Source: a virus
Lineage: Duplodnaviria; Caudoviricetes
IMG/VR virus record: IMGVR_UViG_3300027533_000034
Location: 1-48,526 of that record
Length of the DNA: 48,526 nucleotides
Reading direction: 5' to 3' (one strand)
Of the stretch, positions 20,820 to 36,794 are shown piece by piece. A program made the position numbers and the translations under genes. The notes under the pieces were generated by a model, which did not search any database, was not told the DNA's origin, and was given only the letters and a program-made list of their open reading frames with translations. The first letter of the stretch is position 1, and each line of letters opens with the position of its first letter.

Positions 20820-21242
20820 ATGATTACAGTCTACCTCGCGTGTGACTCCAAGCTTCAGTCGGCCGCAAGAATGCTTCGAGAGAAGTTGGGCACGCGCGGC
20901 ATCATGGTTACTTCCCGTTGGCTCGACAACGACTTCGACCTCAACTGGACGACGGAAAAGCTCATCGAAGAAGCTGAGAAGGACTTGGTTGACATCGACG
21001 AGGCTCATTACTTCGTGCTCTACAATCCCAAGTCACATCATCGTGGCGGGACAGGCGGTCGGCACTTCGAGACGGGCTACGCCTACGCGCATGGCAAGCT
21101 CCTCATCTACTGCTCTGAGGAAGTGGAGAACGTGTTCCACAATCTGATAGACATTCACGTCGTGATGAAGGATAAGGAAACCTTCAACGACTTCGTTGAC
21201 ACTTTGGCGAACGTGATTCATTCAATCAAAGAGGATGAGTAA
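20820..21242 (+). CDS. Nucleoside 2-deoxyribosyltransferase-like / nucleotide N-hydrolase-fold protein
   Basis: VYLA, TSRW, DL.DIDEA..FV, GGRHFETGYAYA.GK, NVFH pattern. Confidence 0.7.
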   Translation: MITVYLACDSKLQSAARMLREKLGTRGIMVTSRWLDNDFDLNWTTEKLIEEAEKDLVDIDEAHYFVLYNPKSHHRGGTGGRHFETGYAYAHGKLLIYCSEEVENVFHNLIDIHVVMKDKETFNDFVDTLANVIHSIKEDE

Positions 21243-23718
21243 CTACGTCCCAGGTCAGGGTAATCCAAGCGCCAAACTGATGGTGGTTGGCGAAGCTCCG
21301 GGTGCGGTGGAGGATCAACTCCTCCGCCCATTCGCAGGCCCGTCTGGTAACTTGTTAAATGAGTTACTTGAGGAGGCCGGGACACATCGCAGAGAGGTCT
21401 ATGTGACGAATGTCGTCAAGTATAGGCCACCGCAGAATGATCTTCGACGCTTAGATCAGATCGGCCATAGCGTCGAGGAAGGGATGGTTCAGTTATGGGA
21501 GGAGATAAACGCGCTCAAGCCCAACTGCATCCTAGCTCTCGGGAACCTGTCCCTCAAAGCTCTAACGGGGATGGGAACCTACATCAAAAAATCGGGAAAG
21601 TATTCGGGCATCCTCACTTGGCGTGGCTCCATTTTGCGCGCCATGCAAGGGGACTATAAAGTCCTCCCAACTATCCATCCGGCCGCTTTACTTCGATCGG
21701 GGGACACTGAGGAGAAGGTGCTGTCATACAGCTCCCGCCTGTATATCTTGAATGATATCAAGCGGGCTGTAGCACAATCGCAGTTTCGTGAGTTCAGACT
21801 ACCACCTCGCACGCTCGAAATCGCTAGAAGCAGGGTGGATGTCTGGCGCTTCCTTGAGAAATACAAGCATCTCAAGAAAGTCTCGGTCGATATTGAGGTT
21901 CTCGCTGCGATACCCGTCTGCATCGCGTTGTCATTTAACACATGGCACGCTATGTCGATTCCTCTCATGGACATCTGGGCGCTCCAGAATAAGGAGTCTG
22001 GAATAGCCGACCACGAGTTTGATTACATGTGGCAGATGTTGATGGAGTTCTTAGGACAGCCTGACATTCAGGTCATCGGTCAGAACTTCAAGTTTGACGA
22101 TGAGAAACTCCGGCGCGCGTGTGGTATCGTTGTCAAGAACACCTGGTTCGACAACATGATGGCGGCTCATACCCTCCATTGTGAGCTTCCACGTAGCCAG
22201 GCATTCCTCACATCCATCTACACTGACGAGCCATACTATAAGGACGAAGGTAAAGAGTTCAACATCAAGAAGTCTCCCTGCGAGCAGTTGCTCTACTACA
22301 ATGCGAAGGACGCCGTTGTCGCCTTTGAGATTCACGAGCAGCTGTATGAGGCAATGGGGGAGATAAACCCACCCGGATTCCCCAACTGGCGTCAGTCATT
22401 CTTCTTCGACCATGTCATGCCCCTTCACGATCTTTACAGGGACATGGAGGATGAGGGATTCCCAGTCGATGAGGAGAAACGTAAGGAGCTGATTAAAGAC
22501 TATGAACAAAAAATTGTTGATGCAAAACGTGAGCTTGAAGCAATCGTTGGGTGGGACGTTAACCCAAACTCTCCAAAGCAGGTGGGGCTCTTACTCTATA
22601 AGGATTTCGCTCTCCCCGCGAGAGGCAAAAGAACTCCTGAAGGGATTAAAACAAGCACAGACGAAGATACCCTAACTGCATTACAGGCTAACGTCTGTAA
22701 GAAGCCTGAGCACAAGCGGGCTATCGACCTCATCCTCAAATTGAGGGGCTGGCATAAGGCTCTCGGCACGTATATCAAGGCTGCGTGTGATTTCGACGGG
22801 CGTATGAGAACGTCCATCCAGATTTGCGGCACGGAGACAGGTAGAAGCTCGAATAAGAAGCAAGAGGCACCCGTCAGACCGTTCAAAATGGGGCTTGCAT
22901 TTCAAACCATGTCAAAACATGGGGAGATGGGAGCAGAGCTTCGCAAGATGTTCATCGCTGAACCTGGGCACTCCATTATGGAGTTTGACTTGTCCCAGGC
23001 TGAGGCGCGCGTCGTAGCCCTGTTGGGACGTTCTGAGGAAACTCTTAGGCTGTTCAACACGACAGACATCCATAAGCTGACCTCCACATGGCTCTTCAAC
23101 TTCCCCATGAACCAAATCTCGAAGGAGATGCGGTTCGTCGGTAAGACATGCCGCCATGCGGGGAACTACGACATGCGGAAACGTCGGCTCATGGAAATCA
23201 TCAACACAGATGCCAAGAAATACAACATCGACATTAGTCCTGTCAGCGAGTGGAAGGCAGGGAAAATGCTGGACACTTTCCACGAGTTCTCACCGTGGAT
23301 TCGAGAGGTATTCCACAAGGAAATCGTCCAAGCTCTACAAGAGAACAACCTCACCCTCGTCAATCCGTTTGGCAGGGTTAGACAGTTCTGTGACCATTGG
23401 GGAGACGAGCTATGGCGCGAGGCTTATGCTCAGATACCTCAGTCAACCATCCCCGACCACATTCGGCGGGCCGCGATAAATCTGCGGCGAAGAGTTCCGG
23501 GTATTCGCATCATACTAGAAGCACACGATGCTCTAGTCTTTATGACGCCGAATCACCTAATCGAACCACACGCTAGAATTATTAAGGAGGAGTTCGAGAC
23601 ACCCATCGACTTCAGGCATTGCACGTTATCGCGTGGTGAGTTAATCATCCCCTGTGAGGCCAAGTTCGGTCAGAACTACAAGCAGTTGAATGACCTGGAC
23701 TTGAAACAGGTGGCATGA
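21235..23718 (+). CDS. polA: Family A DNA polymerase with an N-terminal uracil-DNA-glycosylase-like domain and 3'-5' exonuclease
   Basis: UDG family-4 motifs GEAPG..E...PF.G.SG, TNVVK.RPP and HPAALLR; exonuclease DIE, QNFKFD, YNAKD; polymerase TGR.S, DLSQAEAR (A), K...HAGNY (B), HDAL (C). Confidence 0.93.
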   Translation: MSNYVPGQGNPSAKLMVVGEAPGAVEDQLLRPFAGPSGNLLNELLEEAGTHRREVYVTNVVKYRPPQNDLRRLDQIGHSVEEGMVQLWEEINALKPNCILALGNLSLKALTGMGTYIKKSGKYSGILTWRGSILRAMQGDYKVLPTIHPAALLRSGDTEEKVLSYSSRLYILNDIKRAVAQSQFREFRLPPRTLEIARSRVDVWRFLEKYKHLKKVSVDIEVLAAIPVCIALSFNTWHAMSIPLMDIWALQNKESGIADHEFDYMWQMLMEFLGQPDIQVIGQNFKFDDEKLRRACGIVVKNTWFDNMMAAHTLHCELPRSQAFLTSIYTDEPYYKDEGKEFNIKKSPCEQLLYYNAKDAVVAFEIHEQLYEAMGEINPPGFPNWRQSFFFDHVMPLHDLYRDMEDEGFPVDEEKRKELIKDYEQKIVDAKRELEAIVGWDVNPNSPKQVGLLLYKDFALPARGKRTPEGIKTSTDEDTLTALQANVCKKPEHKRAIDLILKLRGWHKALGTYIKAACDFDGRMRTSIQICGTETGRSSNKKQEAPVRPFKMGLAFQTMSKHGEMGAELRKMFIAEPGHSIMEFDLSQAEARVVALLGRSEETLRLFNTTDIHKLTSTWLFNFPMNQISKEMRFVGKTCRHAGNYDMRKRRLMEIINTDAKKYNIDISPVSEWKAGKMLDTFHEFSPWIREVFHKEIVQALQENNLTLVNPFGRVRQFCDHWGDELWREAYAQIPQSTIPDHIRRAAINLRRRVPGIRIILEAHDALVFMTPNHLIEPHARIIKEEFETPIDFRHCTLSRGELIIPCEAKFGQNYKQLNDLDLKQVA

Positions 23719-32172: not shown

Positions 32173-32715
32173 CTAGAACCGTGTGCCGGACCACTGGAGA
32201 TTCGCATCCAGACCTAGCACGTTCCATGCGAATGATGAATTGCCACAGTGGTCTACGATGACATCGACGCCCCACGCGCCGGTATTATCAGACGTAGCTC
32301 GGTATGCGATAACGTCCATGGAAATCGTTCCAGTATTGGACTTGATGACGTAACCCCAACGGGTGTCGCTGGCGCGTAGCGTCTTGACCAACCCATCCAT
32401 GAACTGCCAGCCAGCTTCGCCATAAAGCGCCACGCAGGATTTCGTCACGAGCAGAGGATTTGCCGTCGCGAATGCCTGAGCGATAGCCTGTGAACCTGAC
32501 GGGATACCGAGCGGCGTCTCAGTCCCACCCGTAGTCGGGTTGGGTAACGGAGCCGTCGGATTCGCGACCGGCGCGAAGTTGGTCAGGTCATGGATGTCAG
32601 TAATGTTCGTATTCGTGTTCGTGTTCGTGCTTGTGACGTTTACCGTCGGACCAGTCGTGTTGTATTCACACCCGATGGCGAACAGTAGCAGAACAGATGC
32701 TGCGAGTTTCTTCAT
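32173..32715 (-). CDS. Lipoprotein (180 aa)
   Basis: Start re-called to MKKLAASVLLLFAIG|C (type II signal peptide/lipobox) after AAGGAG; Thr/Asn/Pro linker followed by a globular domain. Confidence 0.8.
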   Translation of the reverse strand: MKKLAASVLLLFAIGCEYNTTGPTVNVTSTNTNTNTNITDIHDLTNFAPVANPTAPLPNPTTGGTETPLGIPSGSQAIAQAFATANPLLVTKSCVALYGEAGWQFMDGLVKTLRASDTRWGYVIKSNTGTISMDVIAYRATSDNTGAWGVDVIVDHCGNSSFAWNVLGLDANLQWSGTRF

Positions 32716-34121
32716 ACAATCTCCTTGAATTCCTCTAGGTTCATCGGACGCATCAGGGCTGCGCATGAGTTCTGACCACTTAGGAACTTCTCCAACACAA
32801 AGTCATTGGTCAATCCAATGTAACCCGTCCACACATCTGAAACGTATGTGTAGAAGATTACGTGGTCACAGTGGACTTTCAATCTTCTGAGGAGTTCTCG
32901 GGCTTGCTCAGGGCGCGCTTCAAAGAGTCGATTAACTGCAATGAGAGCAAGATAATAATGACCAGCCCAATAACTATGGTCAAAGATATCACACTGATGA
33001 ACAACACCATTGTGTCTACCGAGCCTTTTAACAGCCTTCTTATGGACTGGTTTATGTAGCTCAACCCCGACTGGAACTGCACCCGAGACATCACTGATGG
33101 CCTCTAGAAGTCGACCATTGCCGCAACCAAGATCAAGGACTTGTGTCCCTGGAGGAATCTTCAGAGCTAGTGCTGCCTCCACGATCATAGCGTGCGCGTT
33201 ATTCATGCCTTCTTGACTTTTGAAACCGTTGTCGGTGTAATCGTTCACCAACTGAACAGTTTCCTGAAATGGAAACGGGCCTCTACCACCCTCCGCTGGA
33301 TATGTAGAACCTTCCTTCGAAATCTCCACCCTCTCGCTGAGAGCATCAGTGTTGTAGACCAGCTTGAGAACAGGTGTCGTCAAGATGGCTACACCATGCA
33401 GTGATGACCACTTGAAGGGCCAGCTTAGAATCTCCTTCAGCCAGTGCATCTCTGCAATCATCTCCACTTTGCGCGTCACTGTGGCGAGCGCGTCTGCTAC
33501 CTTCACCGACTCTTGACATACCATCGAGCATGGAAGGTGCGACACCATCCTCAGCCCTAAGTGACGCAGGAAGACGTTGTTCTGATAGTTTCCTACGACC
33601 TGGAGTTGATGTTGAAAATCCAGAGTTTTACAATCTTCCATGCCAACAGTGGAAGTAATTGCAACATCTCTCCAACCTTGTTCTTTCCACGACCACTGGT
33701 AGAATTCACGACAACACTCCGGGAAGCCAAGCATTTCCCCGATCGCCCGGTCGTCACCCTCTTCCCACGCACTAATGAAGCGGGAGGCAAGCTCTGGTCT
33801 TGTCACGACTACCCTGTAGCTCCACGGGTGACCCTCGACGTATGCTGTCGACGCATTCTGATAGCCATTACCATTAGCCTGTCGACTCAGTGGAACTGCT
33901 ACTAGCCCTGCCCTGAGTGCCCACTTCGACAACTCAGCTAGGTATTCTGGACCTGCAACTTGAAGAGCAGCGGGCTTTACACCAGCTAGCACTGCAAATC
34001 TTTCAATCGTCTCCCAGACGCCGGAGATTCTCTGGAAGCGCGGCTCCCAAGTCTCACGAGCTACTGGGCTTGCCCAGATAGTTCTCATGAACTCCGGGAT
34101 GTTAATGTCTAGTCTCTCCAT
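32712..34121 (-). CDS. Fusion of a Cys-motif domain (DUF483-like) and a class I SAM-dependent methyltransferase
   Basis: GEMLGFPECC and SHLPCSMVC in the N-terminal domain; VLDLGCGNGRLL...GVE...CDIF in the C-terminal domain. Confidence 0.8.
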   Translation of the reverse strand: MERLDINIPEFMRTIWASPVARETWEPRFQRISGVWETIERFAVLAGVKPAALQVAGPEYLAELSKWALRAGLVAVPLSRQANGNGYQNASTAYVEGHPWSYRVVVTRPELASRFISAWEEGDDRAIGEMLGFPECCREFYQWSWKEQGWRDVAITSTVGMEDCKTLDFQHQLQVVGNYQNNVFLRHLGLRMVSHLPCSMVCQESVKVADALATVTRKVEMIAEMHWLKEILSWPFKWSSLHGVAILTTPVLKLVYNTDALSERVEISKEGSTYPAEGGRGPFPFQETVQLVNDYTDNGFKSQEGMNNAHAMIVEAALALKIPPGTQVLDLGCGNGRLLEAISDVSGAVPVGVELHKPVHKKAVKRLGRHNGVVHQCDIFDHSYWAGHYYLALIAVNRLFEARPEQARELLRRLKVHCDHVIFYTYVSDVWTGYIGLTNDFVLEKFLSGQNSCAALMRPMNLEEFKEIV

Positions 34122-35305
34122 ACGACGGGTATCCCTCTTTCGTCTGAATCTCCGTGTCCGTCACCGTGAGGGACATCGCCGTGACCATCGCCATGTGAGT
34201 CTCCGTGGCTGTCTCCGTGCTGTGCATCGCCATGACTCGAAGCATCATGAGTTGCGTCCTGAAATACCTGATGACGGACGCGCGCTCCTAAATCTTTCTC
34301 GATGATTGTGAAGAGGTGATACCAAAGTTCACAATCCGCGGTTCGGTTTCTCCAGTCACCATCGATGGCAGTTCCAGGACACTGCCCCTTGCAAAGATTG
34401 AGGTATCGACAATCCTTGCATCCACCGAACTGCTGTGGAACCTGTTGTAGAACCAAGAATCGCTCGTTACCAGGAGTATCCGCTTTGACCCAGTTGATGC
34501 CATCCTTGTTAGTCCTCCCACAGTTGCTCTGCGTTCCGTCAGGACCGACGCCGCGCACTGCTGCCGTTGTGAGTGGGTCGCAGTTGTTCCAGACGCATGA
34601 GACGTGAGGATTCTGCTCAGTCAACAACCGAGCTATGTCGTTGAATGGCATGATGTCGAGCTTGCTCACCTTCGAGAACTCGTAGAAATGAACGAAGGCA
34701 TCGATGGTCTTAGCCTGCGACATTTCCAGTCCGTTATGGCATGCTTCCTTCTCAAGTGTGTGCAGGTTGACATACTTGATGCCCATCTTTTGAAGTTTCT
34801 GCATCCAGTTCGTCATGTGAGCGAGTGCCCGGTCAGTCCCGGCATTCCAATCGTGAAGCGTCACAATCAGACTTGGCGGGAGTCCTGCTGCGCAGAGCTT
34901 TGCGATTGCTGACTCTGTTCTCGCCGTCGCGACTCCCGTCTCGCTGCCCATCTTTCGAGCATCATTAAGCTCTCCAGGGCCATCCACACTAATGCCAACG
35001 TAAGTGCGATATCGCTTAAAGAGAGCAATGTGCTCGTCAGTGATGAGACTGCCGTTGGTTTGTATACCGTTACGTCCAAACTGCTCCAAGCCAAACTTGA
35101 GAACCTCTTCGATATGTTCAATGGGAGCGAGCAGAGGTTCTCCGCCAAAAAGTGCGAAGTCCGAACCCTCTCTCATAAGTTGGACCTTTGCCCGCTCCCA
35201 ATCTCGGGGCACGCTGATATTGCCAGCATTCCTCATGGGGTCCTGATAACAGTAACCGCACTGAAGATTGCAAGCGATACCAACGGGCAAGTATTCTATC
35301 GACAT
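34109..35305 (-). CDS. Radical SAM/SPASM-domain enzyme (peptide/protein maturase type) with a C-terminal HGD-repeat tail
   Basis: CNLQCGYC (CxxxCxxC), FGGEPLL, IQTNGSLI, GISVDGP; SPASM-type CVWNNC..NC and CKDCRYLNLCKGQC...C. Confidence 0.93.
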   Translation of the reverse strand: MSIEYLPVGIACNLQCGYCYQDPMRNAGNISVPRDWERAKVQLMREGSDFALFGGEPLLAPIEHIEEVLKFGLEQFGRNGIQTNGSLITDEHIALFKRYRTYVGISVDGPGELNDARKMGSETGVATARTESAIAKLCAAGLPPSLIVTLHDWNAGTDRALAHMTNWMQKLQKMGIKYVNLHTLEKEACHNGLEMSQAKTIDAFVHFYEFSKVSKLDIMPFNDIARLLTEQNPHVSCVWNNCDPLTTAAVRGVGPDGTQSNCGRTNKDGINWVKADTPGNERFLVLQQVPQQFGGCKDCRYLNLCKGQCPGTAIDGDWRNRTADCELWYHLFTIIEKDLGARVRHQVFQDATHDASSHGDAQHGDSHGDSHGDGHGDVPHGDGHGDSDERGIPVVWRD

Positions 35306-36318
35306 TATGGTCCTACGTAAACAGGGTAGTCAGTGTGCGCGCCGTCAGTGTGAGTCGCTGGCACGTCCGTGTGCGTGTCGTCATGGGTATCGATATGAGC
35401 CGAGTCAGTATGTGCTAAGTCCCCATGACCGAAGTCGTAATGCGCGTCCTCATGAGCTCTGTCAGTGTGTGCATCAGAGTGACCCGAGTCACTATGGGGC
35501 GCACCATCCCCATGATTGTCGTTGTGTGACTGGTCCGTGTGTGCAACTACGGGAGGCGTATCCGTATGCACATCATCATGCACATCAGAGTGAACATCAT
35601 AATGAATATCATAATGTTGCGTTGGGCCACCCGCACTGTCGTTGTGGTCGAAGTGAGCATCCTGATGCCCTGGATTTGTCGGGTCTGTGTTTGTATAGTC
35701 ATAATGACCATCAAAATGATTCCCAACGCCATTGGCACTATAAGCACCATCCTCATGCCAATCGCTATGTGGGGTATCACCATGAGTATCGCTATGAGGA
35801 GTATCAGTATGAGTGTCACTATGCGCCGTGTCGTCATGCCAGTCAGTATGGGCTACGTCACCGTGAGGCACGTCACTGTGAGTGTCCTGATGAGCGAAGT
35901 CGTCATGCCAGTCGTTATGTGCAGCATCCGAGTGCGGCGTATCACTATGAGGCCCGTCAGCGTGTGTGTCTGTATGAGTATCGCTATGCGGGACACCGAT
36001 GCCGTCGATGTGAGCTATGTCAGTATGGGCCTGATACTTGTTACCGTTCGCAAGCCAGCTCGCGAGATTGTTCTCAATCCACATCGAGCCGGAGATGGAA
36101 CCAACCTTTGGGATTGGATTCACTGCTAGGACTATAACCTCAAGTAAACCCTCACTGATGTAATGAAGATCATTTCCCTCAATCCAGATAGAGCCAACTA
36201 AAGCTCCAGCAGGCGCAGCGATGTAGTTAATCGCAGGATAATACCACTCCTGCCCTGATCCATCGACATAGTGAAGGTCATTGCCTTCAATCCAAATTGA
36301 GCCTGTGACTTTAGGCAT
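35305..36318 (-). CDS. His-x-Asp repeat protein (45 HxD motifs); candidate tail-fibre needle and rSAM substrate
   Basis: Three N-terminal GS(I/M)WIE repeats; every His from residue 98 to 330 is in an H-x-D triplet; TAATG coupled on both sides. Confidence 0.85.
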   Translation of the reverse strand: MPKVTGSIWIEGNDLHYVDGSGQEWYYPAINYIAAPAGALVGSIWIEGNDLHYISEGLLEVIVLAVNPIPKVGSISGSMWIENNLASWLANGNKYQAHTDIAHIDGIGVPHSDTHTDTHADGPHSDTPHSDAAHNDWHDDFAHQDTHSDVPHGDVAHTDWHDDTAHSDTHTDTPHSDTHGDTPHSDWHEDGAYSANGVGNHFDGHYDYTNTDPTNPGHQDAHFDHNDSAGGPTQHYDIHYDVHSDVHDDVHTDTPPVVAHTDQSHNDNHGDGAPHSDSGHSDAHTDRAHEDAHYDFGHGDLAHTDSAHIDTHDDTHTDVPATHTDGAHTDYPVYVGP

Positions 36319-36794
36319 TAGCTCGTCGCGTATCTATCGACACCAAATGGAATCACGAGTGCTTCATGGATATAAACACGCCTAGCCTTTGCTGCATTGC
36401 TTCCGATATCGCAAGCTGCATGAGTATTGAAAATGATGGGGCAGTTTATCGTGAAGGCGGTAAGATTCATGATGGTTCCGCCTGAGATAGAAACAGCGTT
36501 CGAGTTCTGAACTCCCATCGTGCCAATGCCAAGATTGCCACGAGCTGTGGCTGGGTCGCCAGTTCCAGTTCCACCACCCGATACAGCAAGATATTTGAGA
36601 GCAAATCCTAAACCATTATATTCATGAAGTGCATAAGTCGCAGGAGTCAGGCGCACCATTTGAATGGCACCGACTGGAACTCCTCCAACCGGCGCGTTCA
36701 GACACAACGTGATAGCATCAACGTCCCTGTCTTTCGCCTCGTTAACAAAGACGTCATACTGCGTCGTAATGGTAGGATTTGACCAATTAGCCAT
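36318..36794 (-). CDS. Tail-associated protein
   Basis: LAVSGGGTG....ARGNLGIGTM motif typical of phage fibre/tail proteins. Confidence 0.7.
   Translation of the reverse strand: MANWSNPTITTQYDVFVNEAKDRDVDAITLCLNAPVGGVPVGAIQMVRLTPATYALHEYNGLGFALKYLAVSGGGTGTGDPATARGNLGIGTMGVQNSNAVSISGGTIMNLTAFTINCPIIFNTHAACDIGSNAAKARRVYIHEALVIPFGVDRYATS

Follow-up and report, generated by a model that had tools for sequence, protein, structure and literature searches.

A mirror-symmetric His-x-Asp array beside a radical SAM enzyme: a candidate fold-back, cross-linked needle in phage virions

Overview

A 337-aa protein encoded in the virus record IMGVR_UViG_3300027533_000034 (Duplodnaviria; Caudoviricetes) carries 45 His-x-Asp (HxD) motifs whose positions are mirror symmetric about the middle of the array. 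The explanation that we consider best, and to which we give an even chance, is a virion needle that folds back on itself, with its triplets probably cross-linked by an enzyme and paired across the two arms, and with a variable, host-binding tip. This reading builds on the observed mirror register, the conservation of the register in relatives of different spacing, the coupling of the genes and the interchange of aromatic-x-Asp/Asn triplets.

The DNA analysed here is the whole record of 48,526 nucleotides (the window). This 48.5-kb record encodes terminase, DNA polymerase, helicase and tail genes; its family A DNA polymerase (21235-23718, plus strand) has an N-terminal uracil-DNA glycosylase-like domain. 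The HxD gene sits between fibre and large late genes, in the order tail-specificity, S74-chaperone fibre, 158-aa fibre-like, HxD, radical SAM and DUF483-like/methyltransferase gene.

Mirror Register of the Window Protein

35305..36318, minus strand: HxD protein gene, 337 aa, with a three-repeat head, HxD array and C-terminal closing strand (ORF list)
35329..36027, minus strand: HxD array, aa 98-330 (exact span of the 45 HxD motifs)
35698..36027, minus strand: putative outgoing arm, aa 98-207, HxD motifs 1-22 (motif positions, register)
35659..35697, minus strand: putative apex, aa 208-220, with the turn centred on residues 212-215 (mirror centre 426/2)
35329..35658, minus strand: putative returning arm, aa 221-330, HxD motifs 24-45 (motif positions, register)

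Every His after residue 95 is followed by Asp at +2, and the array holds 45 such motifs by sequence count. A first-pass annotation had proposed that the spacer lengths between motifs mirror each other. A recount confirms its series of 14 spacers from either end, of which 12 are identical and two differ by one, as well as the central position of the longest loops (10, 10 and 7 aa). The two differences (5/4, then 2/3) are +1 and then -1 and cancel out. In the permutation check that the annotation suggested, the symmetry exceeds chance expectation (p = 5e-6 with full permutation). It also does so when spacers are shuffled within arms (p = 1.3e-4), against a Markov null that keeps spacer transitions (p = 0.004) and when any offset is allowed (p = 0.008).

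Judged by residue positions, the mirror extends over the entire array and is thus wider than first reported. The positions of paired His residues sum to 426 or 427 in 21 of 22 possible pairs, 426 being the sum of the first and last His, and shuffled arrays reach a mean of 14.4-14.6 pairs (p = 1e-4 with all spacers shuffled, p = 5e-5 with long spacers fixed; 20,000 shuffles each). The proposed pairing of motif i with motif 46-i holds for motifs 1-15 and 21-22 but not for motifs 16-20 and 23. Motifs 17-20 pair by 47-i, motifs 16 (H170) and 26 (H235) have no partner, and motif 23 (H218-x-Asp) faces Tyr208-x-Asn210 instead of an HxD. The 10-aa loop 191-200 lies opposite segment 228-238 in this register. 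An inverted DNA duplication between the arms was considered and rejected: the best ungapped scores are 7 for reverse-complement, 10 for reversed and 14 for direct orientation, and in the absence of a long inverted copy such a duplication does not explain the mirror. In all likelihood, the chain runs out and folds back at residues 212-215 as a long needle.

Head Closure and Tip

36028..36318, minus strand: N-terminal head, aa 1-97, three GSxW repeats, predicted all-beta with three sheets (AlphaFold pLDDT 87-97)
35305..35328, minus strand: C-terminal strand, aa 331-337, predicted to dock on the head (AlphaFold, homologs)
35596..35757, minus strand: variable tip zone, aa 188-241, holding the long loops (comparison with relative L016)

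Relatives were pooled from 84 homologous proteins, the complete array ORFs of 87 loci and the window protein, giving 177 sequences, of which 154 have 16 or more motifs and 109 remain after dereplication. A full-length alignment was too variable to seed the locus search; loci were found via the enzyme and via a DNA pattern.

Residues W9, W45 and W80 of the head are nearly invariant among homologs. AlphaFold leaves the stalk unmodelled in the window protein (pLDDT mostly below 60) and in a 170-aa homolog, and we therefore infer the hairpin geometry. At the far end of the chain, strand 333-336 is predicted with pLDDT 94 in the last block, and likewise in the 170-aa homolog. Blade-sized structural alignments spanning residues 4 to 337 suggest that this last strand lies in one sheet with N-terminal strands. 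Moreover, the C-terminal tail motif is present in 60/67 head-bearing vs 3/33 headless arrays, a count that excludes the 9 of 109 proteins with a single head repeat. The docked strand and the co-occurrence of tail and head suggest that the array interrupts the head as an insertion, the chain departing from the head and coming back to it, and the C-terminal strand is predicted to close the base of the needle by docking on the head. The out-and-back hairpin with in-register pairing of the first-pass annotation is thus supported by the register and by the strand on the head, while its exact pairing rule fails near the centre.

The HxD protein has no family in Pfam, NCBIfam and PHROGs and no usable match in the ESM Atlas, and a sequence search of the PDB returned only a chance pilin match (E 0.7). 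No PDB entry reached E<=0.001 in Foldseek searches with the window or the homolog model. BFVD gave one significant match, a 342-aa protein that is, judging by its length, probably the phiMa homolog. A lectin head was considered as well: the best VIA-align match is the beta-prism-II lectin LlpA (Z 4.4 and 4.0; Z 4.4 with rmsd 4.5 over 90 aligned residues for the head), which lies under the level that VIA-align calls meaningful, so the head is not filed as a lectin. In a 418-aa protein the GSxW head forms the C-terminus with no array attached, and elsewhere it has an inserted LamG domain (P0083, P0001); it hence appears to be a portable domain.

A variable centre in homologs had been anticipated and is indeed found. 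In the one pair compared, with L016, the tip is identical at 16/54 positions vs 72/90 and 66/96 in the arms. Across the relatives, aromatics and Cys are most frequent in the central deciles, where motif density is lowered. The variable loops at the turn probably bind the host receptor, a role we hold with modest confidence.

Fibre Context and Attachment

36318..36794, minus strand: 158-aa tail-fibre-like gene directly upstream of the HxD gene (weak PHROG tail fibre matches, E 9e-5 and 4e-4)
36318..36359, minus strand: LVIP(V/F)G motif at the fibre C-terminus, candidate head-docking site (upstream ORFs of relatives)

The slot upstream of the HxD gene is conserved as that of a fibre-like gene. 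Among the ORF rows upstream of head-bearing arrays, 32/44 end in LVIP(V/F)G, including those of otherwise unrelated fibres, and in 11/109 proteins the motif is fused ahead of the head. From these sequences we infer that the head docks on the fibre tip through LVIP(V/F)G. The fusion of fibre and head in 11 relatives further suggests one HxD protein copy per fibre chain, which is more likely than a single cap as formed by gp38. Headless arrays are fused to collagen fibre, LamG or tail proteins, and the collagen fusion would imply a trimer in one relative. In phage Cumys, the HxD gene comes after baseplate and collar-fibre genes. Taken as a whole, the HxD protein is very probably a virion fibre.

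Motif Chemistry

In the relatives, the residue at +2 of the array His (n = 3528) is Asp in 3275, Asn in 179, His in 13, Glu in 4 and Cys in 0 cases. Furthermore, Asp or Asn follows at +2 after 137/194 free Phe, 126/309 free Tyr and 12/52 free Trp residues, and after 243/3184 non-aromatic residues. The enrichment of Phe and Tyr ahead of x-Asp/Asn indicates that the motif is aromatic-x-Asp/Asn. One relative, L110, carries seven Phe-Val-Asn motifs opposite HxD/N partners, although the register of L110 itself falls short of significance (p 0.07). A His partner stands opposite His motifs in 1156/1350 cases, opposite aromatic-x-Asp/Asn in 28/76, opposite other x-Asp/Asn in 21/88 (p 0.09 vs aromatics) and opposite free positions in 175/1191. 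The aromatic motifs exceed free positions in this respect but do not significantly exceed other x-Asp/Asn, which speaks against the preferred reading.

These numbers bear on a needle that is zipped by metal, in which paired HxD/DxH motifs (a His2Asp2 hairpin or a His3Asp3 trimer) would bind Zn, Fe or Mn along the axis and the triplets would undergo no covalent change. With in-register pairing, one face would carry two His and two Asp, His motifs have partners more often than their aromatic substitutes do, and there is a precedent in gp37, where seven His-bound irons are described along a fold-back needle (PMC6957217). However, the enriched Phe/Tyr and Asn substitutes cannot form such a site, residues other than Asp at +2 of His are far more often Asn than Glu, His or Cys, and the enzyme gene at 51/60 arrays is left unexplained. 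We regard this alternative as unlikely, and metal could also be present in addition to cross-links.

The metal motif of T4 gp37 is His-x-His. The first-pass annotation had drawn on this hallmark, which is absent from the window array and accounts for 13/3528 array His residues in the relatives, vs 3454 in HxD/N. Its suggestion of metal ions or crosslinks as the means of pairing divides accordingly: Phe/Tyr-x-Asp/Asn triplets in motif slots and the radical SAM gene beside the arrays disfavour metal as the main principle, and putative crosslinks fit better. Both the aromatic-x-Asp/Asn interchange and the near absence of HxH are sequence features favouring an enzyme motif over gp37-type iron sites.

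Triceptide synthases are described to join an aromatic ring to Cβ of residue 3 of the motif, and one of them, HtkB, to tolerate His-to-Phe swaps (PMC11499958). Aromatic-to-Cβ cyclophanes are reported to constrain peptides to β-strands (10.1101/2024.12.16.628070). Thus, a cyclophane within each triplet, with His-to-Asp cross-links, is the chemistry towards which we lean slightly.

Radical SAM Enzyme and Its Locus

34109..35305, minus strand: radical SAM enzyme with a SPASM-type Cys set, candidate maturase (PF04055, E 2e-15)
34148..34234, minus strand: seven HGD motifs in the C-terminal tail of the radical SAM enzyme (sequence)
32712..34121, minus strand: DUF483-like domain fused to a SAM methyltransferase, 469 aa (PF04467, E 7e-4, below cut-off; PF13649, E 6e-6)

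The HxD gene shares one base with each neighbour: its start overlaps the stop of the upstream fibre gene, and the radical SAM gene begins within its stop codon. Cysteines C12/16/19 of the enzyme and eight further Cys are invariant in seven sequences; the auxiliary set, judged by its Cys spacing, is presumably of SPASM type. In the tail, H375, D377, H380 and D382 are invariant in the seven sequences. A short HxD tail occurs on the enzyme in most relatives and is missing in several; it might serve as self-substrate, as decoy or to hold metal. The best NCBIfam matches of the enzyme are peptide or protein maturases, all under their cut-offs of 310-450 bits (DynA 81, AmcB 74, GrrM 55, YhhB 55, XyeB 41), so that in this profile search the enzyme falls outside every characterised cyclophane-synthase family. 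Its nearest solved relative is an anaerobic sulfatase maturase, and homologs are found in the cultured Thermus phages phiMa, Cumys and phiLo.

At 60 array loci found by a DNA pattern that is blind to the enzyme and partly redundant, the enzyme lies within 5 kb in 51/60 and the DUF483 partner in 46/60. Of the nine loci without the enzyme, five are truncated by a contig end, two lack a real array, and the remaining two are on 2%- and 30%-complete records. Five enzyme-less loci have no enzyme match anywhere in the record, but these records are 2-39% complete, so that the negative result carries no weight. The link between array and enzyme holds in both directions (75/87 and 51/60 loci), and it is very likely that the neighbouring radical SAM enzyme acts on the HxD motifs.

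If so, it might still do something other than close a ring within the triplet: links between His and Asp of opposite arms, or epimerisation or oxidation of the triplet, together with a methyltransferase step, are conceivable in a fold-back fibre. Inter-arm links would directly explain the strict register, the enzyme belongs to no characterised family, and a methyltransferase is fused to the partner in the window. On the other hand, the identical triplet in the short tail of the enzyme and in non-hairpin contexts points to a linear motif, and co-variation of motif type between partners (His/aromatic or Asp/Asn) was not found across the relatives, in a comparison of low power. We consider such chemistry improbable.

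A third proposal keeps the enzyme and drops the fibre, taking the array as a multi-core RiPP precursor that, once modified, would be cleaved into numerous short cyclophane peptides. The triplets fit the aromatic-x-x pattern of triceptides and a maturase-type enzyme adjoins the array gene. Yet peptides destined for cleavage would have no need of a closing strand or of a mirror register that spans as many as 765 residues, collagen and tail proteins occur as fusion partners of arrays, and no peptide-release protease or exporter/transporter family was found among the neighbour genes scanned, except the S74 fibre chaperone. This makes a precursor very improbable, and the preference of the first-pass annotation for a structural fibre over a cleaved multi-core precursor stands on the closing strand, the mirror register and the fusions to fibre and tail proteins.

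Modification of DNA by the enzyme and its DUF483 partner, with the HxD protein as a mere neighbour, has been proposed for Cumys and phiMa from cyanobacterial gene contexts (10.1101/2024.08.14.607894, PMC11437467). This is hard to credit with genes that lie in tail operons with overlapping stop and start codons, an enzyme whose own tail bears the triplet and an array-enzyme link that holds both ways. Our preferred reading remains a needle whose triplets are modified by the neighbouring enzyme.

Several further observations concern the locus. A 197-aa gene (32173-32766, minus strand) after the methyltransferase gene contains a Thr/Asn run as well as a lipoprotein-like signal that ends in Cys, with no family match; its slot is taken by an unrelated 557-aa gene in L002 and is empty in L001. 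In phiLo (L010:12807-15026), headless arrays of 75 and at least 39 motifs are encoded over 4 kb away from the enzyme gene, and on the other strand. At the bacterial loci L086, L089, L090, L093 and L096, the same enzyme stands beside proteins of 990-1650 aa whose arrays repeat about every 8 residues, and a short second array gene is present at two of these loci.

Mirror Register and Contact Between Arms in Relatives

In the relatives, an end-anchored count of identical spacers missed many arrays because a single lost motif breaks the count, and it was replaced by position-based tests. The rigid position test reaches p<=0.05 in 41/97 dereplicated arrays (20 or more motifs, window included), and 56/97 arrays miss this level. 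Of the 41 significant arrays, 31 are anchored on the first and last motif, with array lengths of 106-765 aa, which implies that length changes must be matched in both arms. In L035, 46/48 pairs are in register across 765 residues. Over all 97 arrays, the best mirror centre equals first plus last in 47, vs 9.6% of shuffles. Relatives with different spacings thus keep the mirror, as the homolog check of the annotation had called for. A gap-tolerant score, applied to 93 arrays of 20-65 motifs, favours the mirror over the direct repeat in 52 arrays, ties in 20 and loses in 21, and reaches p<=0.05 in 47/93 arrays for the mirror vs 19/93 for the direct orientation.

The arms of one protein match each other better than foreign arms (6.8 vs 3.5; 34 distinct patterns, p 5e-5). 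Matching is also raised in direct orientation (5.5 vs 3.5) and is thus due in part to shared composition and internal duplication. Among 17 fresh arrays, seven are significant on His alone and two of these seven are end-anchored. The mirror register is hence common among the relatives, which are not independent of each other, and it is neither universal nor always rigid.

The residues in the middle of facing motifs co-vary. In the 37/92 arrays significant on His alone, Gly faces Ser/Thr in 112/615 pairs, with 84 expected under a within-protein null and 95 under a context-matched null (z 3.4), vs 78/601 and 88/584 with the register slid. Gly-Gly partners are depleted (12 vs 19 expected in the 615 pairs). 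An excess of Asp/Glu facing Asp/Glu was discarded after it disappeared under the within-protein context-matched null.

It is extremely improbable that tandem duplication and a spacer alphabet of two letters produced the symmetry without fold-back: most spacers are 1 or 2, some arrays score in direct orientation and over half miss the significance level, but this idea is contradicted by all shuffle nulls, by the frequency of end-anchoring, by residue co-variation that is specific to the register and by head/tail docking, which is independent of spacing.

Variants of the array occur in several loci. In phiMa gp29 (L011:5964-6992), three abutting motifs apparently face two motifs with a 3-residue spacer according to the spacer list, and length, not motif number, seems conserved between the arms. 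At L068-L076 and L032-L035, each locus holds several array genes, in which spacers of 4 and 6 occur and His-x-Asn or Phe-x-Asn motifs are frequent; some of these arrays begin at residue 3 and finish in Cys-rich tails. L106:2964-5210 is a variant array rich in His-x-Glu and Tyr-x-Asp/Asn triplets and useful for enzyme specificity.

Comparison With Known Systems

The accessible account of T4 gp37 describes D11 as an insertion that leaves and re-enters the base domain D10 (PMC6957217). The two proteins share an elongated, His-rich out-and-back insertion in a base domain built from both chain ends, with a tip inserted at the turn and a place at the end of a fibre (PMC6957217); for the window protein, the sequence and partial models suggest this arrangement. 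The gp37 needle is trimeric, with 50-residue stem arms and seven iron atoms held by His (PMC6957217). The window protein, with about 110 residues in each arm, has an HxD motif every 4-5 residues along both arms, 45 in all, as well as Phe/Tyr/Asn substitutions in its family and a dedicated radical SAM gene. No match between gp37 and the HxD protein was found by sequence, profile or fold, the stalk lying outside the confident model.

With the triceptide systems (HtkB, HaaB, YhhB, ChlB, XncB), as far as their description extends (PMC11499958), the array shares the aromatic-x-x motif, the interchange of His, Phe, Tyr and Trp, a radical SAM/SPASM neighbour and several motifs per substrate. Unlike triceptide substrates, the HxD protein belongs to the tail module, is 337 aa long (relatives up to ~1470 aa) and combines a folded head with dozens of motifs in mirror register. 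Neither a Gly-Gly leader nor a protease or exporter was seen, and the enzyme scores under all family cut-offs. The HxD system is therefore gp37-like in topology and triceptide-like in motif, and departs from each in a defining respect.

The same three genes make up the 'rSAM module' of Cumys and phiMa, whose enzyme is 48% identical to that of the window (10.1101/2024.08.14.607894; PMC11437467). Cumys gp13 and phiMa gp29 are homologs of the HxD protein, and the DUF483 partner has 312 aa in that module vs 469 aa in the window. In the published description, as far as it is accessible, the third gene is without an assigned function, DNA modification is suggested, and an HxD array, its symmetry or a fibre role are not mentioned (10.1101/2024.08.14.607894; PMC11437467).

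The gp38 adhesin of S16 resembles the HxD protein in being small, in having its own gene next to that of the fibre, and in combining variable distal loops with an N-terminal part that contains three conserved Trp (PMC6851490). In the same account, gp38 has a helical attachment domain, a polyglycine sandwich and one copy per gp37 trimer (PMC6851490). In contrast, the window head is predicted to be all-beta, and the fusions in relatives speak for one copy per chain.

A Model for the Needle

In the proposed mechanism, the enzyme, aided by its DUF483 partner, would read each aromatic-x-Asp/Asn triplet on the unfolded chain and, in the manner of triceptide synthases, link its ring to Cβ of residue 3. 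The resulting cyclophane rings would lock each triplet in a β-strand shape, and the locked triplets would pair motif against motif across the arms, so that spacer lengths must match and indels must be compensated. An extended chain rises 3.3 Å per residue, and arms of ~115 residues, if fully extended, would measure roughly 35-38 nm. The head would bind the C-terminal motif of the fibre, probably in three copies per trimeric fibre, and the variable loops at the turn would contact the host. A cross-linked needle leaves the role of the methyltransferase unexplained.

Implications

In the literature searched, only the Cumys/phiMa 'rSAM module' was found; subscription papers lay mostly outside this search, and supplementary genome-mining tables may list such enzymes. 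Within the same scope, we found no virion structural protein that is matured at dozens of sites by a dedicated radical SAM enzyme, and no chemical or virion-proteomic data on the HxD protein.

As a tentative generalisation, to which we give somewhat less than an even chance, many unrelated phages build a receptor-reaching needle as a ribosomal 'poly-cyclophane' rod that is zipped back on itself in a mirror register encoded in the sequence. A phage enzyme would install dozens of His/Phe/Tyr-to-Asp/Asn rings along a virion protein. If this is true, phages would possess a stiff, portable needle, ~30 to >100 nm long and suited for grafting on tail fibres, collagen fibres or tail tips, and the sequence of such a fibre would reveal its register. 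RiPP chemistry of the antibiotic type would serve as structural material, and the cross-linking enzyme would have to be processive and handle substrates hundreds of residues long. The 'rSAM module' of Cumys and phiMa would move from DNA to protein modification and a recurring orphan gene trio would be explained. The homologs in these cultured Thermus phages make the reading directly testable.
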